This document shows, piece by piece, positions 9 through 62,542 of a DNA stretch of 64,000 nucleotides (within the stretch, counting starts at the first letter, position 1; each line of letters opens with the position of its first letter). A program made the translations under genes and the position numbers. Source of the stretch: Alphaproteobacteria bacterium (GTDB lineage: Bacteria > Pseudomonadota > Alphaproteobacteria > CAAHEQ01 > UBA3637); assembly GCA_015062245.1 (NCBI GenBank), contig SUVA01000001.1:12856-76855 (forward strand). The letters are read 5' to 3'. The notes beneath the pieces are model-generated. The model was not told the origin of the DNA. It ran no database searches and saw only the letters and a list, made by a program, of their open reading frames with translations.

Positions 9-716
9 TTATTTAGTCGGCTCAATAACCTCTGACTTTTGTGCCAGATTCGGATTTTGTTGAGGTTGTTTTCCCGGCTGTTGTAAATTTTGTTGAGCTG
101 GCATTGTCGGCGCCTGAACAAGAGGTTGTTGCATATTCGGCATACCCCCCATTTGATTTTGACCAAAAGCAGGTTGGAAACCACCTACACCTTGCGCTCC
201 ACCACCCAAAGATGTCAGCAACGCCATATTGATATCATCAAATAATTTGGTTTTACGTAAAACAGGATTTTGTTCCATATACCACAAAATATTCCGACCC
301 TTTTCATCTGTTTGAGTTATGTCCACATTTGCTTGTTGTAAAAGTTGAATAATATATTCATTGGGTGCATAATAAGCTGCAAACAAAATTAAAGGCACCT
401 TTTTGGGAGCATCCTCAATCGGAAAATCATCCAAAGAAACAATTTGATTGGCACGTTTTAAATCCTGCGATAATAAAGCCTGTAAAACATCCCAATTACC
501 ACGACGTATCGCCAATTGCATCAATGTACCGCCACAACGGGGCACTTCATCAAAATTGACATTTTTATTGATTAAATCTTGAATCTGAGTTGCATCACGG
601 GCATCCCGAACCAATGTTTGAAGCGGTGAATAGGCACACTCTGACTTTTGTGGCGCAGCCTGAACCGGCGCAGACATTAAAATCCCCAAAGCACATGTCA
701 ATAAAAGTTTTTTCAT
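9..716 (-). CDS. Secreted ankyrin-repeat protein with Q/P/G-rich low-complexity C-terminal tail
   Basis: Sec-type signal peptide (MKKLLLTCALGILMSAPVQA); two to three ankyrin-like repeats (GGTLMQLAIRRGNWDVLQALL, GRNILWYMEQN); C-terminal about 70 aa rich in Q, P and G. Confidence 0.55.
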   Translation of the reverse strand: MKKLLLTCALGILMSAPVQAAPQKSECAYSPLQTLVRDARDATQIQDLINKNVNFDEVPRCGGTLMQLAIRRGNWDVLQALLSQDLKRANQIVSLDDFPIEDAPKKVPLILFAAYYAPNEYIIQLLQQANVDITQTDEKGRNILWYMEQNPVLRKTKLFDDINMALLTSLGGGAQGVGGFQPAFGQNQMGGMPNMQQPLVQAPTMPAQQNLQQPGKQPQQNPNLAQKSEVIEPTK

Positions 717-24966: not shown

Positions 24967-25059
24967 GTTCGCCTCCTTACATATATTATACCACAATTTT
25001 GAAATTTGTCATAAAAAACTTTCTTTTTGGCAAAAAATATGATAAAATAAGACTGTTAT

Positions 25060-25365
25060 CTGATGATAACTATGATACTAAACGGCAAGTGGAATAGATG
25101 TTGTGGACTCGGGGGCAGTACCCGACGCCTCCACCAAAAAAATTATGGGGGCGACACAGATTCGACACGCATAGTAAAGATTTGACCTTGTATCCGGTAT
25201 GGTAGCACCGTTATCGCGCTGAAAAAAATAGATGCAAACGATAATTTTGCACCTGTTGCAATGGCCGCCTAATTTAGGCGTCTGATGTGACGAATGATTC
25301 TGAAACTATTTGTACGTTTCAGTGGGGTTTGGGGTGAACCTAGCAACAGAATCACCCCACTTTTA
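25060..25365 (+). ncRNA. ssrA: tmRNA (ssrA), two-piece circularly permuted form
   Basis: Acceptor piece ends ...TCGGG-GGCAGTA-CCCGA-CGCCTCC-A-CCA at about 25136. Ten nt later the coding piece begins GGGGGCG (pairs with CGCCUCC), then ACACAGATTCGACA. Tag reading frame GCA AAC GAT AAT TTT GCA CCT GTT GCA ATG GCC GCC TAA (ANDNFAPVAMAA*) at 25234..25272; terminal hairpin GTGGGGT...ACCCCAC plus TTTT at about 25322..25364. Ends approximate. Confidence 0.75.
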
Positions 25366-28184: not shown

Positions 28185-29942
28185 TTACTTCTTATATAAC
28201 GGACGGGGTTGATAACTTGTATGCAACAAGTGGTGCGACCGTTCGGACAAAGGCTTACCCAAAAATTCGTCATATAATTTCTTTACATCCGGATTTTGGT
28301 GTGAGCAACGTTGTTTTGACCCACGATCATCCTGCATCAAACCGGCCATACGGGCCTGACGGATTTCGTCTGTCACACCCAAAGGCTGACCGCCACCACC
28401 GACACAACCGCCATCACAGGCCATCACCTCAATAAAGTGATAGGGCGGTTCTTCGCCTTTTTGTTCGGCTTCACGGACTTTTTCCAACAACGCCTGAACA
28501 TGGCCGATACCATGGGCAACGGCAATGCGGACTTCTTTACCCGCTAAATTCAAGGTCATTTCTTTAATACCTTTATCCAAGCCCAAAATCGGTTTGATTT
28601 CCAAAGCGTCTTCGGGCATTTCTTCACCCGTCACAACGGCATGAACGGTACGCAAAGCAGCCTCCATCACGCCACCTGTGAAACCAAAGACCGTGGCAGC
28701 CCCCGTATAAGAACCCAAGGGGCTGTCGGCCTGTTCTTCGGGCAGATTGACAAAGTCAATGCCGGCCTGTTTAATCATGCGGGCCAATTCTCGGGTGGTC
28801 AAAGACACATCCACATCTTGAAAGCCCGAGGAGAACATTTCTTCCGAACGCAGGATTTCAAATTTCTTCGCCGTACAGGGCATAATTGAAATCACACGCA
28901 TATTTTTGGCTTCCACACCGATTTTATCGGCATAGTAGGTCTTGCTTAAAGCACCCACAATTTCGTGCGGGGATTTGCAAGATGAAAAGTGCGGAATCAT
29001 ATCGCTATAGTATTTTTCCATATAATCCACCCATGCCGGACAGCAGGATGTAATCATCGGTAAAACACCTTTACCATTTACAAAGCGTTCAATAAATTCC
29101 GTGCCTTCTTCCATAATAGTGACATCTGCCCCAAAGTTGGTATCAAACACGGCATTAAAGCCCAAACGGCGCAAGGCGGCATATAACTTACCCGTTGTGA
29201 TTTCCCCCGGTTTATAGCCAAAGGCTTCACCGATAGCCACACGAACGGCTGGTGCAATTTGAACCACACAGTATTTGTCTTTATCCTGCAACATATTCCA
29301 CACATATTGTGTGTCATCACGTTCGGTTAAAGCCCCAGTCGGACAGTGGGCTGTACATTGACCGCACTTGATACAGGGGCTATTGCCCAATTTTTCATCC
29401 GCCGCCGGTGAAATATGTGTATTGATACCACGTTTTAACATGGACAAAGCCCACACATTTTGGGTGTTTTGACAAACTTCCACACAGCGACCGCAAAGGA
29501 TACATTTGCGCGGATCCAACACGATACTTTTGGTGGAATCATCCACGGGCAATTCTTCCTTGGTGGGTGTAATATCGGCAAATTCCGTATCACGAATACC
29601 AAAGTCGGCCGATAATTTTCTCAATTCGCAGGTATCGTTTTTCAAACAGGTCAAACATTCGTTCGGATGTTTGCTGAGTGTCAGTTTCAATACTGTGCGA
29701 CGAGCCTCAATAATATCGGGATCACGGGTAATGACTTCCATCCCTTCGGCAACCGGCGTACAACAAGAACGCACCATACGGCCATTGGATTTGACAATAC
29801 AAATACCACAGGCAGCAGTCGGAGGTAAATCCGGATGATGACACAGTGTCGGGATTTTAATTTGAACGGATTTGGCTGCATCCAAAATGGTTGTACCGGC
29901 CGGCACTTCCACGGTTTGAGAATCAATTGTTAATTTTACCAT
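28185..29942 (-). CDS. hydA: [FeFe]-hydrogenase catalytic subunit HydA (M3-type with N-terminal 2Fe-2S and three 4Fe-4S accessory clusters)
   Basis: H-cluster signatures L1 ITSCCPAWV, L2 MPCTAKKFE, L3 EVMACDGGCVGGGGQP; N-terminal CxxxxxxxxxxCxxC 2Fe-2S, H/C-ligated cluster (HPNECLTCLKNDTC), CILCGRCVEVC and CIKCGQCTAHCP ferredoxin motifs. Confidence 0.85.
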   Translation of the reverse strand: MVKLTIDSQTVEVPAGTTILDAAKSVQIKIPTLCHHPDLPPTAACGICIVKSNGRMVRSCCTPVAEGMEVITRDPDIIEARRTVLKLTLSKHPNECLTCLKNDTCELRKLSADFGIRDTEFADITPTKEELPVDDSTKSIVLDPRKCILCGRCVEVCQNTQNVWALSMLKRGINTHISPAADEKLGNSPCIKCGQCTAHCPTGALTERDDTQYVWNMLQDKDKYCVVQIAPAVRVAIGEAFGYKPGEITTGKLYAALRRLGFNAVFDTNFGADVTIMEEGTEFIERFVNGKGVLPMITSCCPAWVDYMEKYYSDMIPHFSSCKSPHEIVGALSKTYYADKIGVEAKNMRVISIMPCTAKKFEILRSEEMFSSGFQDVDVSLTTRELARMIKQAGIDFVNLPEEQADSPLGSYTGAATVFGFTGGVMEAALRTVHAVVTGEEMPEDALEIKPILGLDKGIKEMTLNLAGKEVRIAVAHGIGHVQALLEKVREAEQKGEEPPYHFIEVMACDGGCVGGGGQPLGVTDEIRQARMAGLMQDDRGSKQRCSHQNPDVKKLYDEFLGKPLSERSHHLLHTSYQPRPLYKK

Positions 29943-29954
29943 CGTTTTATTTCC

Positions 29955-31715
29955 TTATCTTTTTGTGTTGATATTACAGGCATTGATTTCTTTTTCGGTT
30001 TCAACCGCATCCGGTTCATTCCCGTCAATCAATAACGCATCATATTCTTCTTTAAAGAACTTCATGGTTGACAAAACCGGATTGGGGGCTGTTTGGCCTA
30101 AACCACACAAAGAAGCCTTTTGCATGGCGTTTCCGATTTCCTTGATTTTGGCCACATCCGCTTTGGTGCCTTTGCCATCGGCAATTTTGTTCATTAATTG
30201 CAACATTTGATATCCACCAATACGGCATGGCGCACACTTACCACAGGATTCATCCACCGTAAAGCCCAAATAGAACTTGGCAATTTCAACCATACTGTCG
30301 TCTTCATCCATGATAATCATACCGCCTGAGCCCATCATAGAACCGATTTTTTTCAATTCTTCATAGCATAACGGCATATGCAGTTCGCTGGCCGGTATCA
30401 CACCACCGGAAGGACCGCCCGTTTGAACGGCCTTAAAGGGCTTACCGGAACTGGTCCCGCCACCGACGTCGTTCACCATTTCACCAACGGTTGTTCCCAT
30501 CGGCACTTCCACAAGACCTGAATGTTTCACTTTACCGGTGATGGCAAAAACTTTTGTGCCTTTGGACGTTTCGGTGCCAACTTCGCTGAACCATTCGGGA
30601 CCGTTGACCATAATCGGTGCAATATTGGCCAAAGTTTCCACGTTGTTGATGGCCGTCGGCTTATCAAACAATCCTTTTTGTGTCGGGAATGGTGGACGGG
30701 GACGTGGTGTACCGCGCTTACCTTCCACAGACGACATCAGGGCTGTTTCTTCACCACACACAAAGGCCCCAGCCCCATAACGGATATCCGCCATAAAGTT
30801 AAAGTCTGTGCCAAAAATGTTGCGGCCCAAAATACCATAGCGTTTGGCCTGTTTAATTGCCAATTCCATCCGCTGAATCGCCAAAGGATATTCGGCACGG
30901 ATATAGAACCATCCGTTGGTGGCCCCTGTCGCATAGGCACCAATCATCATCCCTTCCAATACGGCATGGGAACCACCACCTAAAATACACGAATCCATAT
31001 AGGCGCCCGGATCGCCTTCATCACCGTTACAAATCATAAACTTTTCACCGTCAACCAAGGGCGATTTGGCCAGCATTTCCCACTTGACACCTGTGGGGAA
31101 TCCGCCACCGCCACGACCACGCAAGCCGGACTTTTTAATCACTTCCAACACTTCTTCGGGTTTCATGGTCAAAGCCTTCATCAACCCCTGATAACCACCG
31201 TTGGCAATATATTCGCCCAAATCTTCGGGATCCGAATGGCCCAACAAACGCAATACGATTTTACGTTGTTTTTGGAAAAACGGCAAATCCAAAGAAAGTT
31301 CTTGTTGTTTCAAATAATCCGAAGTATTGATTTCGCCTTCTGATTTCAACGCCGGTGCCACATGCTCGGCCACAATCAATCGGGCCATATCGGGCGTTAC
31401 ATGTTGATATAATACAGGCTTTTGACCTTTAATTTCCACACGGGCCAAAGGACCGGAGGCACACAACCCCATACAACCGGTGCAAACCATACGCACATCG
31501 GCTTCTATACCGGCCGATTTTAAAGCTTCTTTAAAAGTATCAATCACACTGGATGCACCACCTGAATGACAGCTGGTGGCATTACAGGTGTAAATGGACG
31601 CCTTAAAATGGGCCACACGTTCTTTAAATTCATCACCCAATTTTAACAATGTTTCTTTTTGGGTGCGCCCCAAAGCTTTTAATTTTTCAACTTGTTCTTG
31701 TGACAATTCTACCAT
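29955..31715 (-). CDS. hydB: NuoF-like flavoprotein subunit HydB (FMN/NAD(P)H-binding, 2Fe-2S + 4Fe-4S clusters)
   Basis: GRGGGGFPTG FMN motif; N-terminal thioredoxin-like 2Fe-2S domain (CTGCMGLCASGP); C-terminal CGKCAPCR-type ferredoxin motifs; 586 aa as in trimeric bifurcating hydrogenases. Confidence 0.8.
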   Translation of the reverse strand: MVELSQEQVEKLKALGRTQKETLLKLGDEFKERVAHFKASIYTCNATSCHSGGASSVIDTFKEALKSAGIEADVRMVCTGCMGLCASGPLARVEIKGQKPVLYQHVTPDMARLIVAEHVAPALKSEGEINTSDYLKQQELSLDLPFFQKQRKIVLRLLGHSDPEDLGEYIANGGYQGLMKALTMKPEEVLEVIKKSGLRGRGGGGFPTGVKWEMLAKSPLVDGEKFMICNGDEGDPGAYMDSCILGGGSHAVLEGMMIGAYATGATNGWFYIRAEYPLAIQRMELAIKQAKRYGILGRNIFGTDFNFMADIRYGAGAFVCGEETALMSSVEGKRGTPRPRPPFPTQKGLFDKPTAINNVETLANIAPIMVNGPEWFSEVGTETSKGTKVFAITGKVKHSGLVEVPMGTTVGEMVNDVGGGTSSGKPFKAVQTGGPSGGVIPASELHMPLCYEELKKIGSMMGSGGMIIMDEDDSMVEIAKFYLGFTVDESCGKCAPCRIGGYQMLQLMNKIADGKGTKADVAKIKEIGNAMQKASLCGLGQTAPNPVLSTMKFFKEEYDALLIDGNEPDAVETEKEINACNINTKR

Positions 31716-31732
31716 CTTTTATCTCCTTACGC

Positions 31733-32218
31733 TTACATTGCCATTGTTTCACGCCATTCGGCAATAATTTTCGGCACTTCCAACGGGGTTACACGGCCGT
31801 ATGTTTTGCCATTGACAACCACAACGGGGGCCAAACCGCAACACCCTAAACAACGCACCACCTGAATATAAAACAAACCGTCATCTGTTGTAATACCGGC
31901 CTTCACACCCAATTCGGATTCAAATGCATCAATAACGGATTGGCTTCCCTTAATATGACAGGCTGTACCATCACAAATAGAAATAACAACTTTTCCCGGC
32001 GGATTTAATTTAAAGTGATTATAAAACGTTAAAACGGAATAAATTTGAGCCATCGGAATCTTTAATTCTTCGGCCACCACTTCCATGGAACACCACGGCA
32101 CATAACCAAATGCCCCTTGGATTTCGTGCAAAGCCATGATTAAAGAACCACGTTTGCTTTTCCACTTGACCATCATTTTTTTGGTCTCTTCTTGTATTTT
32201 TGCTTTATCTTCGGACAT
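31733..32218 (-). CDS. hydC: NuoE-like thioredoxin-fold 2Fe-2S subunit HydC
   Basis: CDGTACHIKG ... VRCLGCCGLAP motif; start at 32218 (MSEDKAKIQ) with RBS AAGGAGAA. Confidence 0.75.
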   Translation of the reverse strand: MSEDKAKIQEETKKMMVKWKSKRGSLIMALHEIQGAFGYVPWCSMEVVAEELKIPMAQIYSVLTFYNHFKLNPPGKVVISICDGTACHIKGSQSVIDAFESELGVKAGITTDDGLFYIQVVRCLGCCGLAPVVVVNGKTYGRVTPLEVPKIIAEWRETMAM

Positions 32219-32252
32219 TATATTCTCCTTTTTTGTTTTAAAGATATTTTCG

Positions 32253-32280
32253 TTATAACATATATTAAAATAATACGCAA
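32253..32280 (-). promoter_or_regulatory. Candidate sigma70-like promoter for hydCBA
   Basis: On the minus strand, TTGCGT-16 nt-TATAAC about 30 nt upstream of the hydC RBS. Confidence 0.4.
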
Positions 32281-32300
32281 GAATTTTTGAACAAATAAAA

Positions 32301-32325
32301 ACCACCGTTTTATCGGTGGTTTTTA
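32301..32325. terminator. Bidirectional terminator downstream of tyrS
   Basis: ACCACCG-TTTTAT-CGGTGGT hairpin with flanking A5 and T5. Confidence 0.55.
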
Positions 32326-37068: not shown

Positions 37069-37350
37069 ATGTTAGTTTGTAAAAATGTTATTGTCAATGG
37101 GCGCAGAACCAGTATGCGCTTGGATCGTGAAACGTGGATATCTTTATCGGATATTTGCCAAAGGGAGGGGATCACAATCCACGAATTGTGTTCTAAAATT
37201 GATGCGACAAAGGGGGTGTCGGGTTTGTCATCGGCCACACGCTTGTTTGTGCTAACTTATTTTCGGTTTTTATTGAATCAATATGAACACCATAATATCA
37301 TGCAAAATAAAACCTTTAATCCCGAAGCGGTGTTAAAGCAAACGGTATAA
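37069..37350 (+). CDS. Ribbon-helix-helix DNA-binding protein (RHH_4-like)
   Basis: NVIVNGRRTSMRLDRETWISLSDICQREG matches the alphaproteobacterial RHH family; RBS AAGGAGAAAAAATG. Confidence 0.6.
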   Translation: MLVCKNVIVNGRRTSMRLDRETWISLSDICQREGITIHELCSKIDATKGVSGLSSATRLFVLTYFRFLLNQYEHHNIMQNKTFNPEAVLKQTV

Positions 37351-42092: not shown

Positions 42093-42714
42093 AAAAAATG
42101 ATAAAAAAAGGTATAAAGAAAATATGTTTGAAGAATTAGAAAAAATTAAATCAGAATGTCAAAATTGTATGCGTTGCCCTTTGGGGAAAACACGCACAAA
42201 TGTTGTTTTTTCGGCCGGTGTCCCCAATTCGGATATCGTTTTAATCGGTGAAGCGCCCGGCTATAACGAAGATATGACAGGTGAACCTTTTGTGGGGCGT
42301 GCCGGTCAGTTGCTGGATAAGATTTTGGAATCGGTCGGTTTTTCACGCAAAGAAAACATTTATATTTGCAACACAATTAAATGTCGTCCGCCCGATAACC
42401 GTGATCCTTTGCCCGAAGAAAAATCGGCCTGCCGTGAATATTTAAACAGGCAGTTGGATTGTTTGAAGCCCAAAATTATCTTATTGTGCGGTCGGGTGGC
42501 TTTAACATCATTTATTGAAACAAAGCAGGGTATTTCAAAAATACGGGGCCATTGGTTTGACGGGCCCAACGGCGCCAAGATGATGCCGATTTTTCATCCG
42601 TCCTATTTGCTCAGAAATCCGTCCCATAAAGAAGGTTCGCCCAAATGGTTGATGTGGCAGGATATGAAAGAAATCCGCCGTGTTTATGATGAACTTAAAA
42701 CAGGTTTGGCATAA
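42076..42714 (+). CDS. Family 4 uracil-DNA glycosylase (4Fe-4S type)
   Basis: GEAPGYNEDMTGEPFVGRAGQLLD motif; Cys ligands (CQNCMRCPL ... CNTIKCRPP); HPSYLLRNP near C-terminus. Confidence 0.8.
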   Translation: MNFLIEKNDKKRYKENMFEELEKIKSECQNCMRCPLGKTRTNVVFSAGVPNSDIVLIGEAPGYNEDMTGEPFVGRAGQLLDKILESVGFSRKENIYICNTIKCRPPDNRDPLPEEKSACREYLNRQLDCLKPKIILLCGRVALTSFIETKQGISKIRGHWFDGPNGAKMMPIFHPSYLLRNPSHKEGSPKWLMWQDMKEIRRVYDELKTGLA

Positions 42715-43130
42715 AAATGCAAAACATCCGTCAATCGTGGTAATTTAATAATCACATCAAAGGTATATCTGTCCACAATATGATATTCTTTTAAATCAGA
42801 ACGATATAAAATCAATTCTTCACAAAACCGACCGACAATTAAAGCCTTTGCAAATAATTGTTTTAATGAATATTCCATTTGATAGGCCAACAAAGTCGGT
42901 TGGCCAAAAACAGAATCCCGTCTTTCGTGTTCATGGATGGAAAACAACTCCAATCCGTTCCACGATAAACCGTCTGTAATATGTAAAAATTGAATGTAAT
43001 CTGATGGTATTTGAATCCAACCTTTTTTAACCAAAGAAATAGAGGTTCGTTGAATGTCCATCATTTGCGCCGGCGAAAAAAATTGAGCGTAATTTTGATA
43101 AAGGGTATTCAAGATGGTGTTGATGCTCAT
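42684..43130 (-). CDS. Hypothetical protein, last gene of the T4CP operon
   Basis: 148 aa; start ATG overlaps the upstream stop as TAATG; no recognisable motif. Confidence 0.45.
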   Translation of the reverse strand: MSINTILNTLYQNYAQFFSPAQMMDIQRTSISLVKKGWIQIPSDYIQFLHITDGLSWNGLELFSIHEHERRDSVFGQPTLLAYQMEYSLKQLFAKALIVGRFCEELILYRSDLKEYHIVDRYTFDVIIKLPRLTDVLHFYAKPVLSSS

Positions 43131-43807
43131 TATCGTCCCCCTGTTTTGACGGCAATTTGTTGCAAATTGGCACTGCTTAAACCGGCCTGAGTGGAACGGT
43201 CTGATTTTTTCTTGCCCCCTGAACCTGTCATTTCACCGTTGGGAATGTAAATTTTACCCAAAGGCACAGGAATGTATAAAGTTTGCGGATGGCCCACACC
43301 GGCCGAAGTTAAAATTTGTTGATTGATATATTTGTGAATCAATTCATGAAAGGGGTGAATGGGAATCAAAACCAAATTATCCATATCCAAATTGCCCCCA
43401 TATAACAACGGATATTTTAAATGCACCGTCCAATTGGTGGGTAAAATCCCCTTGGACATATAAAAGATACTTTCTTCGGATATATCAGCACTGCGTAAAT
43501 CGTTCACATATTGGGCGACTAAATCTTTTAAAAAAAAGTGTTTAAGTTTTTCCAGTTTTTGATGAAATTCAGCTTCATTTATCGTATGCGGATAATAATT
43601 GGCCGACATCAATTCCATGCCAGCAAAATTTTCCTGTTGAAATAAATCCACCCAATAATCTTGATTTTTTATATCCGAATCCAACCCCTCCATCAAACCA
43701 TCCAAACCAATGGAATCCGTTTGTGTTTTGGGTGCCGAATTATCCATCAACTGGTCCCAGTTGTCATAAATTTCATTGCCGTCCAATTCTGTCAGATTTT
43801 CATCCAT
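43130..43807 (-). CDS. Acidic hypothetical protein co-operonic with the T4CP (candidate adaptor/chaperone)
   Basis: 225 aa; D/E-rich N-terminal half; Cys-free; overlaps the T4CP stop by 8 nt. Confidence 0.45.
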   Translation of the reverse strand: MDENLTELDGNEIYDNWDQLMDNSAPKTQTDSIGLDGLMEGLDSDIKNQDYWVDLFQQENFAGMELMSANYYPHTINEAEFHQKLEKLKHFFLKDLVAQYVNDLRSADISEESIFYMSKGILPTNWTVHLKYPLLYGGNLDMDNLVLIPIHPFHELIHKYINQQILTSAGVGHPQTLYIPVPLGKIYIPNGEMTGSGGKKKSDRSTQAGLSSANLQQIAVKTGGR

Positions 43808-46088
43808 TTAAATCATCCTTGGGTAGTGGTGGTTGAAAAGTCGGTGCTGAGGTCGGTGGTGCAAAAACCCCCTGACCCTGAGGCGGTAAAATTGCCTGAA
43901 CGGGTTGCGCATTATTTTGAAGTTGAATTTGTTGTTCTGTACTTTCTTGCGGTTGAGGTTCTTCCGATTTTTGTTGTTGGTTTTCCGGCGCCCGTCTGTC
44001 CACAATCCATTGGGGAATATATGGGGCGGTCGGAATCTGAGTCTTTTTCAAAAAGCCTTTATCCAAATAATACCGTGGTGCATCGGCCAAAATCGGATGC
44101 GATAAGAACCCTTGGAACAAAACATACTGTTTTAACATATCCAAACTTAAAATATCCGAAGCACTGACCACATCTGATTTTTGCAATTGACGGGATACGT
44201 TTTGCGAAAAGTCAAACATTTTTTGTCCTCCGCCTTCTTGTTTGGATGTGCTTTTAACTTCAATCGTTTTGGAACCAATCATTTTTACAAAACGTTCGGC
44301 TGTTTGTTCGTTGTTTTGGGATAAAATAACTTTTGCCGCCGTTGTTGAAATAATTGTTTCCAAATCGTCTTTACCGTATTGGCCGGAAATTTGGCCTAAA
44401 TCCTGCCCGATTAACAAATAGGCCACCTTTTGTCCACGACCAACAGCCGGACCGTTTTTCACACAATCCAGTTTTGGCATTTGCGGGAATTCGTCCAACA
44501 CGAACAAAACAGGACAAGGCCCACATTTTTTGCCGTCATTACCCACATACCCCGGCGGATTAGCAATTAAAAATGAACTGACCAATTCCACAAAGATACC
44601 CGTAATCACGTTCAAAGCACGGGCATCCACTTGGTTAATGGACAAATAAACGGAAATCGGTTTGATTTTGCCGTCCGCCGGATCCACCATACCACGCAAA
44701 TCACGGAAAGTAAAATCACTGAATTTGGTTCGTTCTTTTACAGCCGCATTTTTAAAAATACTGATACCTGACAAAGCGGTTGATAAAATTGACCCACGTT
44801 CTTTATCGGGCGTACTGGATAACTGATTTAATTCGGCAATAGCCCGACGGGCATAAGCAAAGCGATTACTTTCATTCACGGCCGCATCCAACACGTCCTT
44901 CATGGGATCGGCCATCATGGCCATTTGATCGCCTTCATCGGAACGGCGTTTAATATCGGCGGCGATTTTCATCTGCATATCGGTCAGCCATTCCAAAATC
45001 ATGGCAATACACGGTTCATGCCCGTGCCAGATTTCAGGCAAACCTTCCCACGTACCGACAGGCGCATAGTTATTTAAATTCAGCTGTCCTTTTTTCAAAG
45101 CATCCAAAGCAATCAAGGCACTGTTATCGGACATATCGGCATAATAGGTGGCCAAAACATTGGCGTCTTCTTGATCAAAAGAACCTTCGGATAACTTGTT
45201 GATAAAATAATCGTTGGCACGGGCCCGTTCGCATTTGCTGGCAATAAAGTGCAAAAAACCACTCATGGCATTACGACCTGTTTTACACCAGTGCGGATCT
45301 GCTCCCCCTTTGGGTTCTTCCACCAACACGGCCACCATAGAGTCAATATACATATCTCGGGCCGGTCCCAACGGGGGCAATGCCGTGGGCGATAAAGGAT
45401 TCCAGCTGGGATAAAAGACACCGTTTTGCGGTTCGTCTTGGGCGCCCCAGTTGATGATAAAAACAGGGCCTATTTTATTACGATAACCTGATGTTTGATA
45501 GCATAATTCGGGTTTCACGTCATTGACAATAATACTTAAAGAATCAGATTCAAAAATCGTGGGAATAACCACGCCGGCGGTTTTACCCGTTCCCGGCGGT
45601 GCCACCACCAAGGCGGATAAAGTGTTGGGCATTTTTAACAAACGCCCCTTAAAACGCCCCAAAACGCAACAGAATCCATCAAACAGCCCCATCTTTTTAA
45701 TATCCTGATAGGAGGCCAAACGGCCACTGCCAAAAACGGTGGACAGATTGGAATATGGGTTCGTATACAATCCGACAAAAATAATAATAGGAATAACGGC
45801 AATCGGAATAAACGGCAAAAACATTGCCACAGGCACAGGGGAAATTTCACGAAATTGTTTTATCCAATTGGCATAGGTAATAATAATTTTGCTGGGATGT
45901 AAAAATGCCTTTGACCAAAAATCCCAAGCAATGCCAACCAACGAAATATCCCCCGATAACAACCAATGTGTGATTGGTAAAATCAACAAAGACAATATCC
46001 ACGAACAAAACAATGCAAAAAGAACAGAAAGTATAACATGAGAAATATACTTATTTTTTTCTTTATATTGATCGTCTGCCATTTTCAT
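43800..46088 (-). CDS. Type IV secretion coupling protein (VirD4/TraG/DotL family ATPase)
   Basis: Two N-terminal TM helices, then FGSGRLASYQDIKKMGLF. Walker A VVAPPGTGKTAGVVIPT (compare VirD4/TraG APTRSGKGVGxVIPT) and Walker B VLFVLDEFPQMPKL. About 60-aa Q/P-rich disordered C-terminal tail. Confidence 0.8.
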   Translation of the reverse strand: MKMADDQYKEKNKYISHVILSVLFALFCSWILSLLILPITHWLLSGDISLVGIAWDFWSKAFLHPSKIIITYANWIKQFREISPVPVAMFLPFIPIAVIPIIIFVGLYTNPYSNLSTVFGSGRLASYQDIKKMGLFDGFCCVLGRFKGRLLKMPNTLSALVVAPPGTGKTAGVVIPTIFESDSLSIIVNDVKPELCYQTSGYRNKIGPVFIINWGAQDEPQNGVFYPSWNPLSPTALPPLGPARDMYIDSMVAVLVEEPKGGADPHWCKTGRNAMSGFLHFIASKCERARANDYFINKLSEGSFDQEDANVLATYYADMSDNSALIALDALKKGQLNLNNYAPVGTWEGLPEIWHGHEPCIAMILEWLTDMQMKIAADIKRRSDEGDQMAMMADPMKDVLDAAVNESNRFAYARRAIAELNQLSSTPDKERGSILSTALSGISIFKNAAVKERTKFSDFTFRDLRGMVDPADGKIKPISVYLSINQVDARALNVITGIFVELVSSFLIANPPGYVGNDGKKCGPCPVLFVLDEFPQMPKLDCVKNGPAVGRGQKVAYLLIGQDLGQISGQYGKDDLETIISTTAAKVILSQNNEQTAERFVKMIGSKTIEVKSTSKQEGGGQKMFDFSQNVSRQLQKSDVVSASDILSLDMLKQYVLFQGFLSHPILADAPRYYLDKGFLKKTQIPTAPYIPQWIVDRRAPENQQQKSEEPQPQESTEQQIQLQNNAQPVQAILPPQGQGVFAPPTSAPTFQPPLPKDDLNG

Positions 46089-46094
46089 CTCCCC

Positions 46095-47237
46095 TTATGA
46101 TAAAATTTGTTTTATTTGTTGAATGGTATCTTCCGGCAACGGTTCATATTGTTTGTTTAAAATCTCACCCAGTGTTTTTAATTCCACCGGTCCGCCAATA
46201 TCCGTTCGGCATACAATAACCCCTAAATCATTCCAAGTTCTGAGCATATCTTCGGCATTTATCAGATTCCCTTTGCGTTCAATCAACATCGGTTGAACCT
46301 TTAAATCAAAACCGGCTGAGGTCAGTTTTTGGCCAACGGCCTTCGTTTGTTGAATCAATTCAAAAACAGGCGATACCCGATGATCCGTTTCCGAAAACCA
46401 CAAAGGATCTTCGTCATTAAACGCTTCTTCATCGGCCAACCAATCCCCCTCAATATCGTCATAAATTGCCCACAACATTTGCCCCTGACAAACGGCCACC
46501 AAATCAGGCTTTTTATTGCCCAAATCAATATCCGATAAAATGGTCCACCCTGTATTTATTAAAAGTTCATGGGCGTTTTCTTCAACCGCCTGATGTGTGG
46601 GTAATTGAATTTCATCCAACGGCATATCGGCCATTTGTTTCAAATCGGGTTCAATCGGATTCCACACATTATCCGGCATAGACGGCGTTGGCGAAAAATC
46701 TTGATGATTTGTTGCGGGCGCATTTGCATAAGATGGCATTTCAGTCGACATCGGATTGGATTGCGCAAAACTTTGTTGTTGAACGGGTTGCGCACGCATT
46801 GTGGGGCCCATTGTCGGCATCGGCATCGGGCGTTGCGCCGAAATCGGTGGCGCCTTAACCGTTTTATGTGATGAATGCGACCGATTTTTGTGTTCAGAAT
46901 GTTTTGAGGCAGGGGTTATTTTTTTCTTGATATGTTGGATATGCTTTTGGGGCAACGTTCCCACCTTTTTTGCCGAAGAACGCCACTGTATCTTATTGGC
47001 CCAATACCAAATTCCCAAATACATGGGAATAACCAAAATAAAGGAAATTAAAAAAATCCAATCCCCAACGCTGGATACACGCCATCCGGCGTTTATTTCC
47101 TGAAACAAAAAACGCCACGATTCACTTGAAAAAAGGTTAAAATTCCAATTGATTTGCAAAAAACCACGGAACCACCACCCAAAAAACAGCAGTGCCACAA
47201 CAAAACCAATCAATAAAGTCCTTTTCGGATTTTGCAT
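46095..47237 (-). CDS. Two-TM inner-membrane protein with large cytoplasmic domain, first gene of the T4CP operon (DotM/IcmP-like by size and architecture?)
   Basis: Start at 47237 (MQNPKRTLLIGFVVALLFFGWWF) with RBS AAAGGAAATAAA, giving 380 aa. Two TM segments, a P/Q/M-rich linker and an acidic C-terminal domain. Ends 6 nt before the T4CP start. Confidence 0.5.
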   Translation of the reverse strand: MQNPKRTLLIGFVVALLFFGWWFRGFLQINWNFNLFSSESWRFLFQEINAGWRVSSVGDWIFLISFILVIPMYLGIWYWANKIQWRSSAKKVGTLPQKHIQHIKKKITPASKHSEHKNRSHSSHKTVKAPPISAQRPMPMPTMGPTMRAQPVQQQSFAQSNPMSTEMPSYANAPATNHQDFSPTPSMPDNVWNPIEPDLKQMADMPLDEIQLPTHQAVEENAHELLINTGWTILSDIDLGNKKPDLVAVCQGQMLWAIYDDIEGDWLADEEAFNDEDPLWFSETDHRVSPVFELIQQTKAVGQKLTSAGFDLKVQPMLIERKGNLINAEDMLRTWNDLGVIVCRTDIGGPVELKTLGEILNKQYEPLPEDTIQQIKQILS

Positions 47238-47325
47238 TTTATTTCCTTTTTCTGATGTTATTATACACAAAACAAAAGCATTTGACCAGCAAAAAATGCG
47301 ATAATTAAAAAAAATAGGAACAGAC

Positions 47326-47378: not shown

Positions 47379-47912
47379 ATGAGACGCAAAACAGAACCCA
47401 AAAAACGATTACATGATTGCGACTTCCCCGGCTGTCCCGAGGCAGGTGAATACCGTGCCCCAAAGGACAGAACGTTGCGTTCACATTATTGGTTTTGCCA
47501 AAAGCATGTGGCTGAATATAATAAAAAATGGGATTTTTTAAAAGGTCTTTCCCCCGAAGAAATAGAAGAACAATTGCGTAATGATACAACATGGCAACGC
47601 CCCCGTTGGAAGTTGGGGTCAAATATCGGCGGTATGCCCCGATTTAAAGATTCCATGAATGTTTTTTCGGAAGAACGGTTGGGGATGGACGGCGGTTATA
47701 ATCCCCCAACACAATCTTTAAAATATCCGCCCAAAGTGCAACGGGCGATTGCCTTTATGGATTTAAATGTTCCCCTTCAATTATCGGATATAAAAAAGCA
47801 ATATAAGGTCTTGGCCAAAAAGTATCATCCGGATGTCAGCAAAGCGGATGCCTCACTTTTTCAACGCCTGACCCAAGCATACGAAACTTTATTGGATTAT
47901 CTGAAAGGATAA
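47379..47912 (+). CDS. J-domain protein with N-terminal Cys/His cluster
   Basis: C-terminal J domain (KKQYKVLAKKYHPD); N-terminal CDFPGCPEAGEY ... FCQKH. Confidence 0.7.
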   Translation: MRRKTEPKKRLHDCDFPGCPEAGEYRAPKDRTLRSHYWFCQKHVAEYNKKWDFLKGLSPEEIEEQLRNDTTWQRPRWKLGSNIGGMPRFKDSMNVFSEERLGMDGGYNPPTQSLKYPPKVQRAIAFMDLNVPLQLSDIKKQYKVLAKKYHPDVSKADASLFQRLTQAYETLLDYLKG

Positions 47913-61706: not shown

Positions 61707-62324
61707 CTATCGAGCTTTTAAATCTTTTAATTTTTTCTGTCTCGCCATACGTTCGACTTTTCTTTCTGCTTTCTCCTGTTCTGTCTTTGGAAAAACTTCT
61801 CTATAGTCACGCACAAGTTCTTTTTTACGCCCTTTGCTACAAGAACTGTCCAAAAGTTTTGTCAGTGTTCTTCTTTTTCGAATGTGTCTAAATCCAAAAA
61901 TAGGGATAGAAACCCCTTTATCTATAACTTTTCCATCTCGATATCGAACAAAAGCCCCTTCAGGGCGTATACCTATACCATCATAACGCCCAACGTACTT
62001 ACATTTTATATCCTTCCCATTTGAAGCGTATATTTCTCTTAAAATTTTACCATCTGAACGAGAACTCTCCTTTGCCCAAACTTTTCCACCATCATAATAC
62101 TCTGTATAAAGCCACTTTCCATCCTTATGTACAAATTTAGACTCTATTTCACCACTTTCATCAAAATTCAAACTCTCCCCATCAAGAAGGCCATTTTTGT
62201 CTACAATACGAATTCCTTCAATCCTCCCCTTCCCCAAAAGAACATCCCAAAAACTTCTGGGGGAATAATATTCTATTTTTTGAATATGACCATCCTTTAA
62301 CTTTTTTCTAACTGTTTCACGCAT
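61707..62324 (-). CDS. MORN/YwqK-like repeat protein, paralog A
   Basis: Start at 62324 (MRETVRKKLKDGHIQ) with RBS GAAAGGAAAT. Shares N-terminal box, G-periodic repeats (YxxxG, DGK) and the C-terminal REYREVFPKTEQEKAERK...KxLKA box with 62678..63319. Confidence 0.55.
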   Translation of the reverse strand: MRETVRKKLKDGHIQKIEYYSPRSFWDVLLGKGRIEGIRIVDKNGLLDGESLNFDESGEIESKFVHKDGKWLYTEYYDGGKVWAKESSRSDGKILREIYASNGKDIKCKYVGRYDGIGIRPEGAFVRYRDGKVIDKGVSIPIFGFRHIRKRRTLTKLLDSSCSKGRKKELVRDYREVFPKTEQEKAERKVERMARQKKLKDLKAR

Positions 62325-62542
62325 TCTATTTCCTTTCAATTGAATTAAGTCATATCTCAATTAAAACAAATTTTCCCCATAAAGTCAACAGTTTTTCGAA
62401 TTAAAATTTCTGAGAGAAATTTTAGCTATCCAGATGATAAGATATTGATAAATAAGGATATTTCTTAATTACTGGTCCGTGTAAGCATCATTTTTGGCCT
62501 TCTTTGATACAACCTCACACGGACTTGTATAACTTATTGATT

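Follow-up and report, generated by a model that had tools for sequence, protein, structure and literature searches.

How does a type IV coupling protein serve a secretion machine when the genes around it encode no other part of one, and why is it made together with three small proteins of other kinds? This question is raised by a four-gene operon in a 64-kb stretch of an alphaproteobacterial genome (contig SUVA01000001.1; "the window" is used here for the whole stretch of 64,000 nucleotides (nt) that was analyzed). The operon encodes a coupling protein and three partners, here called p380, p225, and p148. The locus is very probably the VirD4 module of a scattered type IV secretion system (T4SS), in which the coupling protein has partners that are derived from a toxin/immunity pair or resemble NERD proteins. 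The four genes are, in order of transcription:

46095..47237, minus strand: p380, first gene of the operon, 380 amino acids (aa) from its ATG, an inner-membrane protein whose two predicted transmembrane (TM) helices flank a conserved Trp-rich periplasmic loop and are followed by a disordered linker and then by a PD-(D/E)XK/NERD-like domain in the cytoplasm
43800..46088, minus strand: T4CP, a predicted VirD4/TraG-type type IV coupling protein (T4CP), 762 aa
43130..43807, minus strand: p225, 225 aa
42684..43130, minus strand: p148, last gene of the operon, 148 aa, probably of the YrhA/SUKH family, an immunity-protein homologue

The start of p380 is the methionine common to its homologues, and a TTG extension to 47336 (413-aa form) is spurious. 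As read from the sequence, a 6-nt gap holding the ribosome-binding site GGGGAG lies between p380 and the T4CP gene, the T4CP and p225 genes overlap by 8 nt (ATGGATGA), and p225 and p148 overlap by 1 nt (TAATG). Because of these junctions, the four genes are predicted to be translationally coupled. At the other end, the p148 gene converges on udg, whose end it overlaps. A previous sequence-only reading of this DNA had described four minus-strand genes with these coordinates and junctions, a 380-aa two-TM membrane protein, a T4CP with the motifs FGSGRLASYQDIKK, VVAPPGTGKTAGVVIPT, and VLFVLDEFP and with a Q/P-rich tail of ~60 aa, as well as an acidic 225-aa protein. This description was borne out throughout: the open reading frames (ORFs) and junctions are as described, all three motifs are present in the translation, the tail measures 62 aa with 26 Q/P residues, p225 has an isoelectric point of 4.9, and the AlphaFold2 (AF2) model of p380 shows two long N-terminal helices.

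The operon is far from unique to the window. The p380 family counts 290 database homologues and is present in 381 species-representative genomes, nearly all of them from uncultured Alphaproteobacteria that live in the gut of humans, ruminants, rabbits, and other hosts. Among 80 loci fetched from different species, on which the locus comparisons are based, the order p380-T4CP-p225-p148 is found in 66; a contig end truncates most of the remaining 14. Since the same order recurs in so many species, the arrangement is far beyond chance, and in hundreds of genomes the partner genes accompany that of the T4CP, an argument for counting their products as part of its function. Only four loci (L073, L074, L078, and L083) keep p380 and the T4CP in the absence of the p225/p148 pair. 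The flanks of the module vary among genomes and always consist of housekeeping genes, which is why the module is regarded as a chromosomal, vertically inherited core and not as the remnant of a mobile element. Across the clade, identity amounts to 55-92% for the T4CP (median 66%) and 27-79% for p380 (median 34%), with medians of 46% for p225 and 38% for p148.

Coupling protein and VirB genes

The sequence of the 762-aa protein points to a VirD4/TraG-type T4CP with intact Walker motifs. It matches the Pfam families T4SS-DNA_transf (PF02534, E=1.6e-54), TraG-D_C (PF12696, E=8.5e-23), and TrwB_AAD_bind (PF10412, E=7.3e-19) as well as the VirD4/TraG families of NCBIfam, the latter all far below their equivalog cut-offs (e.g., 142 versus 728 bits). 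Hydrophobic stretches were read from the sequence at residues ~17-44 and 85-106, and in an alignment of 71 sequences, residues 120-700, which include both Walker motifs, show 70-99% column consensus. Beyond residue 700, the column consensus drops to 0-0.41, and beyond 720 it is 0 with 65-84% gaps. Only in the window's subclade is the tail Q/P-rich; most other subclades have a short acidic one, and some a long poly-acidic one. The features of the T4CP are:

45558..45608, minus strand: Walker A region VVAPPGTGKTAGVVIPT, residues 161-177, block conservation 0.91
44484..44510, minus strand: Walker B region VLFVLDEFP, residues 527-535, block conservation 0.91
43803..43988, minus strand: subclade-specific C-terminal Q/P-rich tail, residues 701-762 (26/62 Q/P)

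The closest plasmid T4CPs (32-35% identity) are encoded on alphaproteobacterial megaplasmids, where they end canonical virB4...virB8-virB9-virB10-virB11-virD4 operons. Together with the PF02534 match, this agrees with the VirD4/TraG-like P-loop recognized in the sequence-only reading. A search of protein databases with the T4CP returned in-clade sequences only (at least 61% identity) and no outgroups, and phmmer found no match in the PDB. Compared with the T4CPs of VirB/VirD4 type IVA systems (A. tumefaciens VirD4, R388 TrwB, and IncP TraG), the window's protein has the same domain set and Walker A/B motifs as well as a putative N-terminal TM hairpin, and its relatives likewise lie downstream of virB11. 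In contrast to those T4CPs, it is chromosomal, vertically inherited, and unusually conserved, and, unlike in other T4SSs, it is co-transcribed with three proteins not seen there. A replacement of FtsK by the T4CP was considered and rejected, as the window encodes a complete FtsK.

Where, then, are the VirB genes? VirB2-B11 queries from the plasmid operons and a MobA relaxase query were run by tblastn against the window and 92 loci (1.51 Mb). They gave no match in the whole 64-kb window, which extends to its full length the earlier statement that no VirB4-, VirB11-, or relaxase-like ORF lies within 15 kb of the operon; likewise, no VirB, relaxase, or other conjugation genes were found within 15 kb on either side. 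In five related loci, however, VirB genes lie near the module. L011 carries VirB3 and VirB4 7 kb upstream (the VirB4 with 34% identity over 774 aa and a PDB match to TrwK, E=1.4e-36), L062 and L068 each encode two adjacent VirB8 paralogues, a VirB7-like peptide, VirB9, and VirB10, and L080 encodes VirB8. In L026, VirB9, VirB10, and VirB11 (41% identity to the plasmid protein and a full-length alignment with Brucella VirB11) are followed by a J-domain gene, an RHH gene, p380, and the T4CP. This is the canonical virB9-10-11-D4 order with insertions, which makes the T4CP very probably the VirD4 component of a VirB/D4 system encoded on the chromosome. An earlier clustering of all ORFs from the 80 loci had returned only the four module genes and the J-domain gene as recurrent, missing the VirB genes (each present in <6 loci), which were found by the direct tblastn searches.

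The VirB/D4 genes would thus be scattered in most lineages, including that of the window, and the T4SS to which the operon very probably belongs would be core to a large group of anaerobic Alphaproteobacteria of gut and rumen, so far uncultured. Judging from these relatives, the window's own genome would carry VirB genes elsewhere. The suggestion of the sequence-only reading that the operon is the dispersed coupling module of a scattered T4SS was thereby supported, while its alternative of a decaying conjugative remnant is made highly improbable by the synteny of the module, its clade-wide range, and the lack of a relaxase or integrase nearby. For the same reasons (no relaxase or integrase within 15 kb of a syntenic, clade-wide module), an integrative conjugative or mobilizable element was rejected, and MobA relaxase gave no tblastn match in any locus.

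Two further observations concern the VirB genes of the related loci. The two VirB8 paralogues (L062:3588-5272 and L068:3640-5330, minus strand) are ~27% identical to each other. Moreover, L026 encodes a giant VirB10 homologue of 2,282 aa (L026:879-7727), also seen at the 5' ends of L062 and L068, whose similarity to ordinary VirB10 is confined to the C-terminal ~250 aa and whose N-terminal extension contains internal repeats, as seen from multiple offset tblastn alignments.

A close parallel is the rvh T4SS of Rickettsiales, which is likewise alphaproteobacterial, chromosomal, core, and scattered over several loci, and whose VirB8 duplication has a counterpart in L062 and L068. The rvh system is further marked by duplicates of VirB4, VirB6, and VirB9 and by the lack of VirB5. 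In rvh, virD4 directly follows virB11. In the module clade, on the other hand, p380 and often the J-domain and RHH genes intervene before virD4, or virD4 is fully separate. Furthermore, the hosts are anaerobic gut bacteria with an [FeFe]-hydrogenase, a metabolism that argues against Rickettsiales.

The lack of VirB genes in the window could also be taken to mean that the module works independently of any T4SS, be it as a membrane-bound DNA-translocase/nuclease device for defence or DNA handling or as a decaying conjugative remnant. Two nuclease-fold partners flanking a DNA-translocase-like ATPase would fit such a device, and so would the weak match of the T4CP to mad8 in PADLOC (E=0.008). Yet VirB genes adjoin the module directly in L026 and lie close to it in the four other loci, the nuclease motif is degenerate in both partners, PADLOC returned nothing for the three partner proteins, and the window has its own FtsK. 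Unlike defence islands and remnants, moreover, the module shows synteny, vertical inheritance, and strong purifying selection, so that this explanation is highly improbable. A defence system in particular was rejected on the distribution of the module, the marginal mad8 match being the only one in PADLOC.

Partner proteins of the T4CP

The first partner, p380, consists of two conserved domains:

46992..47228, minus strand: membrane domain, residues 4-82, TM1, loop NWxFxLFSxxSWxFLxxEFxxGW, TM2
46098..46625, minus strand: C-terminal nuclease-fold domain, residues ~205-380, with the invariant acidic/aromatic segment GDWLADEE..EDPLWFSE..HR.SP

The AF2 model places helices at residues 4-31, 38-49, and 57-82 (predicted local distance difference test scores of 86-96), followed by a disordered linker at ~110-195 and the folded C-terminal domain. 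W31, F33, and W85 are invariant, and further positions are nearly so. The C-terminus is presumably cytoplasmic since a basic stretch follows TM2 (positive-inside rule). The C-terminal domain adopts a restriction-endonuclease-like alpha/beta fold of the PD-(D/E)XK (NERD-like) type, and its Pfam NERD match (PF08378) reaches 13.4 bits, below the cut-off of 22.1. The catalytic D...(D/E)xK motif is not kept: no Lys is conserved, and D245 and E220 are found in only 61/95 and 66/95 sequences, respectively. p380 thus differs from NERD/PD-(D/E)XK proteins in lacking the (D/E)xK lysine, in its variable PD aspartate, and in its large invariant acidic/aromatic insertion. Its conserved membrane/periplasmic part would most likely pack against the TM hairpin of the T4CP, and the NERD-like domain with its degenerate motif is probably a binding platform and not a nuclease. 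When the family profiles of p380, p225, and p148 were compared with PDB sequences, no meaningful matches were obtained.

The second partner, p225, starts with an acidic disordered N-terminus that contains the motif ELDGxEIFxNWDQL, continues with an HNH (His-Me finger) domain, and ends in a basic disordered C-tail of 35 aa. The first 60 residues include 16 acidic and 2 basic ones. Across the clade, the N-terminus varies from 27 to ~290 residues, whereas the C-tail is 36-37 aa long and net positive in every copy. The ELDGxEIFxNWDQL motif was found on no other protein in the sequences examined, where it might have marked a shared secretion signal. A Foldseek search of PDB structures with p225 gave no significant match. 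The origin of the core domain is apparent from its sequence relatives. The family profile finds 503 proteins, and many of the matches lie at the very C-terminal end of classic polymorphic toxins, namely LXG, PT-HINT, PT-TG/WXG100, MuF, or Mu-portal-fused proteins (profile E down to ~1e-16), with a weak Pfam HNH match at the same spot in most of those checked. Residues 106-189 align by BLASTP with residues 301-383 of E. coli K-12 YhhZ (36% identity, E=1e-11), an Hcp fused to HNH that is annotated as putative endonuclease, and the annotations of plasmid homologues read LXG toxin, pre-toxin TG protein, or HNH endonuclease. Hcp-fused HNH-DNases of the YhhZ architecture kill bacteria in a T6SS-dependent manner (PMC6730261). 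The core of p225 is thus homologous to the toxin domain of YhhZ, Hcp-ET1, LXG, PT-HINT, and MuF toxins, but unlike the Hcp, LXG, and PT-HINT toxins it is not attached to a known trafficking domain.

The HNH motif itself is altered:

43334..43435, minus strand: degenerate HNH motif of p225, N125-W-T-V-H129-L130-K-Y-P...G137G138...N144...P-F-H154-E-L-I-H158

The toxin relatives read W-x-V-H-H-K-x-P...GG...N-L-V-L-I...P-Y-H, whereas p225 reads W-T-V-H-L-K-Y-P...GG...N-L-V-L-I-P-x-H-P-F-H-E-L-I-H. Compared with YhhZ-type toxins, HH has therefore become H-[L/I/V] and a colicin-like H-x3-H has been gained. The second His of the pair was replaced in all 66 module-linked copies (L in 48, I in 10, V in 7, and Q in 1), while H129, H154, and H158, which are the putative metal ligands, do not vary, and N144 is kept in most copies and replaced in some. 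In a hidden Markov model alignment of the 148 best profile matches, the 25 top-scoring ones, presumably the module-linked family members, are non-HH and 89 more distant ones are HH. The distant H-[L/I] relatives P0329, P0353, P0383, and P0305 lie directly after a T4CP gene and before a gene of ~141-148 aa (on the P0337 contig, only a downstream gene of ~148 aa is seen); the change of the His therefore goes with the T4CP linkage. In ColE9, the metal is bound by His102 and His127, and His103, the second His, acts as the general base (PMC2816704). Without the base His, His-Me families such as Smad MH1 and the ENPP nuclease-like domain have no activity yet can bind DNA or ligand; in PacI, a loop Tyr takes the place of the His base (PMC5714182). 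In its omega-loop, p225 has also gained two tyrosines, Tyr136, which is invariant, and Tyr132, which is nearly so. Since the general-base His is replaced and the metal-ligand His residues are kept, the classical DNase chemistry of p225 appears to be lost or rewired.

The third partner, p148, probably belongs to the family of the protein encoded next to yhhZ. In the window copy, the match to NCBIfam NF038335 (YrhA) reaches 47.8 bits with a cut-off of 55, and 33 of 33 family members match this model (best E=1.9e-20). Weak, sub-threshold Pfam matches to SUKH-1 and SUKH_6 were obtained for 24/33 and 21/33 members, respectively, and the pairwise comparison of p148 with E. coli YrhA gave E=5e-6. E. 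coli yrhA lies directly 3' of yhhZ, just as p148 lies directly 3' of p225 in 66 loci, and in both pairs the toxin-type gene comes first, then the immunity-type gene, with overlapping ends. Given the homology of p225 to YhhZ- and LXG-type toxins, the YrhA-family matches of p148, and the shared gene order, p225 and p148 appear, at the sequence level, to be homologous to an HNH toxin/SUKH immunity pair. They differ from polymorphic toxin pairs in being T4CP-linked, single-copy, and non-polymorphic.

These assignments bear on the DotM-DotL-like arrangement with small adaptors that had been proposed in the sequence-only reading. In the Legionella Dot/Icm system, the layout is superficially alike, with a ~380-aa two-TM protein upstream of the T4CP and small partners downstream, and a multi-subunit coupling complex of that kind is conceivable for the window's module. 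Homology to DotM, DotL, and the adaptors was nevertheless rejected: p380 does not have the DotM cytoplasmic fold but a NERD-like one, p225 (HNH) and p148 (YrhA/SUKH) do not have the IcmS/IcmW or DotN folds, and the T4CP tail is not conserved. The tempting DotL/DotM analogy is hereby removed as wrong, whereas the observation of the operon, its VirD4-like assignment, and the scattered T4SS were upheld. According to the same reading, partners unrelated to any T4SS component would have spoken against a coupling complex. They are indeed unrelated to known T4SS components, yet their conserved linkage to the T4CP argues for a shared function.

Possible roles of p225 and p148

What would such a pair do beside a VirD4? 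We consider it on balance probable that the operon as a whole is the virD4 operon of a core, scattered type IVA T4SS, with p225 as a client and p148 as its chaperone. For the cargo-plus-chaperone mechanism specifically, our confidence is lower, and we put it forward tentatively. The T4CP would act as an active-looking hexameric ATPase, anchored in the inner membrane and made together with three clade-specific proteins. p225 and p148 would go back to a polymorphic toxin of the HNH-DNase kind and to its SUKH (YrhA) immunity protein, respectively, and p225 would have become a dedicated client, recognized by the T4CP through its N-terminal motif and/or its basic disordered C-tail and handed over to the VirB channel encoded elsewhere. 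In the producer cell, p148 would hold p225, so that an immunity protein may have turned into a chaperone following the logic of VirE1-VirE2. Agrobacterium VirE2 is an exported nucleic-acid-binding VirD4 client with a basic C-terminal signal, which is kept inert by the small co-operonic VirE1. The analogy is one of logic only, as no sequence or fold relationship exists between the two pairs. The client role is preferred because toxin domains are cargo by ancestry, because the termini of p225 are disordered with a basic C-tail of conserved length, and because the pair is dispensable in some lineages.

Several findings weigh against this account. A cargo without a catalytic base has no obvious effect on a target. 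With a mean column identity of 57%, a single copy, and translational coupling, p225 follows the pattern of a complex subunit rather than that of an effector. The nuclease-fold domain of p380 could still be catalytic via non-canonical residues. Finally, VirB genes were not found in the 64-kb window, and the presence of a T4SS in this organism is deduced from its relatives. A co-variation of charge between the T4CP tail and the p225 termini was also considered, but it was phylogenetically confounded and ran in the wrong direction for compensation, and it was discarded.

The subunit-like conservation of p225 leads to a different role, in which p225 and p148 form a domesticated, non-exported heterodimer that serves with p380 as a fixed subunit of the coupling complex and recruits or gates other VirD4 substrates. 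Such an adaptor pair would be functionally analogous, not homologous, to IcmSW/DotN/LvgA on DotL. It would explain why the catalytic base was lost in 66/66 copies while the fold, the metal ligands, and the partner gene were strictly kept, and it fits the high conservation of p225 next to a very slowly evolving T4CP, the 8-nt translational coupling of the two genes, and the fact that the N-terminal motif of p225 occurs on no other gene in the loci and is thus not a shared secretion signal. However, the C-tail of the T4CP, which is the usual dock of adaptors, is not conserved, four lineages keep p380 and the T4CP without the pair, and the basic disordered C-tail and the variable N-terminal extension (up to ~290 aa) of p225 are cargo-like. 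We regard this adaptor pair, the main alternative to the client role, as possible but less likely than not.

Could p225, instead, still be a weapon? As an active DNase or other DNA-damaging toxin, it would be injected into rival gut bacteria through the VirB/D4 system, and p148 would be a true immunity protein. The homology to experimentally toxic HNH effectors of the Hcp-ET1 class (PMC6730261) and the alignment with YhhZ speak for this, as does the retention of the immunity gene in every copy. An alternative base would be required, for which Tyr136 or Tyr132 in the omega-loop might replace the His as the Tyr does in PacI (PMC5714182), and the H295A variant of HpyAV retains ~1% activity. The base is absent across a deep clade, though, and the residue that replaces it varies (L/I/V/M/Q), which indicates that the position is not under catalytic selection; moreover, there is no polymorphism and there are no multiple cassettes or orphan immunity genes, only one conserved, vertically inherited pair. 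Bacteria-killing T4SSs with VirD4-recognized effector/immunity pairs do exist in Xanthomonadales (X-Tfe/X-Tfi), where a VirB/D4 system likewise has toxin-type/immunity-type pairs beside its vir genes. The XVIPCD domain of these effectors measures ~120 aa. A C-terminal domain of that size does not fit p225, whose C-tail is too short for an XVIPCD-type domain, although no search for such a domain was made. In p225, furthermore, the catalytic base is gone, and lineage and niche differ from those of the X-Tfe proteins. An active toxin is thus unlikely.

More improbable still is a role of p225 as a DNA-binding or Tyr-dependent nicking "pilot" without the His base, which would rely on the omega-loop residues Tyr136 and Tyr132 and, together with the membrane-tethered nuclease-fold domain of p380, present chromosomal or foreign DNA to VirD4. 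The core chromosomal T4SS would then have a relaxase-independent branch for DNA export or import, made out of a domesticated toxin/immunity pair, and p148 would act as its off-switch.

The search for a described counterpart of this operon composition in Pfam, NCBIfam, PADLOC, the PDB, and the literature searched was without result. The VirB/D4 machine is known; new in this case are a membrane partner of the NERD-like kind and a pair of HNH/SUKH origin that has lost the catalytic His. Alphaproteobacteria of gut and rumen occur widely yet are uncultured, and the literature searched yields nothing on their secretion systems; queries for RF32, Rs-D84, and CAG-239 (taxon names guessed for the clade) combined with secretion systems returned nothing relevant. 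A VirB/VirD4 system that is core and inherited vertically appears to be common to hundreds of their species, and its slow-evolving T4CP is typically made with proteins that are absent from every characterized T4SS. Should the pair prove to be a client or adaptor of VirD4, it would clearly exemplify the domestication of a polymorphic-toxin cassette into a secretion machine and provide, via three small proteins, a new handle on substrate recognition by T4CPs. If p225 is still toxic, bacteria-killing T4SSs extend to the mammalian gut microbiota.

Neighboring genes and variants of the module

The recX, udg, and J-domain neighbors named in the sequence-only reading were confirmed by Pfam annotation, which covered every sizeable ORF from 28 kb to 62 kb of the window and assigned only housekeeping or metabolic genes there. 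Besides UDG, RecX, and the J-domain protein, the neighbors include ComEC, an amidohydrolase, two Mla-type ABC transporters, RadA, UvrC, an [FeFe]-hydrogenase with NuoE/F-like subunits, TyrRS, MscL, a DsbA-like protein, CvpA, RlmH, and PgsA. FtsK, Hda, HisRS, LolA, and an ankyrin-repeat protein are encoded at a greater distance. Three features close to the operon or recurrent in its relatives may be linked to it:

47260..47288, minus strand: candidate promoter-like site TGGTCA-17-TATAAT from a consensus scan, 23 nt upstream of the p380 start
47379..47912, plus strand: J-domain protein with an N-terminal Cys-rich motif (CDFPGCPEAGEYRAPKDR...HYWFCQKH), Pfam DnaJ E=9.7e-10, divergent from p380
37069..37344, plus strand: RHH_4-type small protein, 84% identity (tblastn) to the L011 copy; Pfam RHH_4 in L003 and L004

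The promoter-like site falls in the 141-nt divergent intergenic region, where matches in the consensus scan are no commoner than expected from shuffled sequence, and is a candidate only. The J-domain gene adjoins the module in 33-35 of 80 loci and stands between virB11 and the module in L026. A link to the T4CP as a chaperone is conceivable, and its functional membership is uncertain. The RHH gene lies directly upstream of p380 in 33 related loci and ~10 kb away in the window, which points to a local rearrangement in the window's subclade; the protein is a possible regulator.

Several variants of the module were seen among the related loci. In divergent lineages, the operon comprises gene X (~300 aa), gene Y (~450-730 aa), a short p380 paralogue, p380, the T4CP, p225, and p148, for example in L096, where it sits in a housekeeping context. 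Gene X is found on the same strand in 20 loci, and gene Y (~330-730 aa) is fast-evolving and of low complexity; both are seen at L096:2857-5947 and upstream of p380 in L073, L083, L078, L074, L071, L065, and L060. X and Y could be further partners or substrates of the T4CP. A membrane protein of ~150 aa that resembles the N-terminal TM region of the T4CP is encoded between p380 and the T4CP at L008:11131-11595, L044:4764-5201, and L047:11249-11686. Pfam found no domains in X, Y, or these small insert proteins. Two of the loci without p225 and p148 have a DNA methyltransferase-like gene with a DPPY motif after the T4CP (L074:10036-10830 and L078:14306-15100).

The remaining observations concern the organism and its genome. 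A two-piece permuted tmRNA gene of the alphaproteobacterial type (25016-25361, plus strand; tag peptide ANDNFAPVAMAA) marks the window as alphaproteobacterial. The [FeFe]-hydrogenase large subunit with its NuoF-like and NuoE-like partners (28185-32305, minus strand) is of the electron-bifurcating type, and an anaerobic fermentative alphaproteobacterium was concluded from this set. Ankyrin proteins are common T4SS effectors in host-associated bacteria; the window encodes an ankyrin-repeat protein at 9-716 (minus strand) and a weakly MORN-repeat-like protein at 61707-62360 (minus strand). In L003 (1-8746), T7-like prophage genes for a capsid, a scaffold, a portal, and an S24 repressor-like peptidase abut the module-adjacent J-domain gene.

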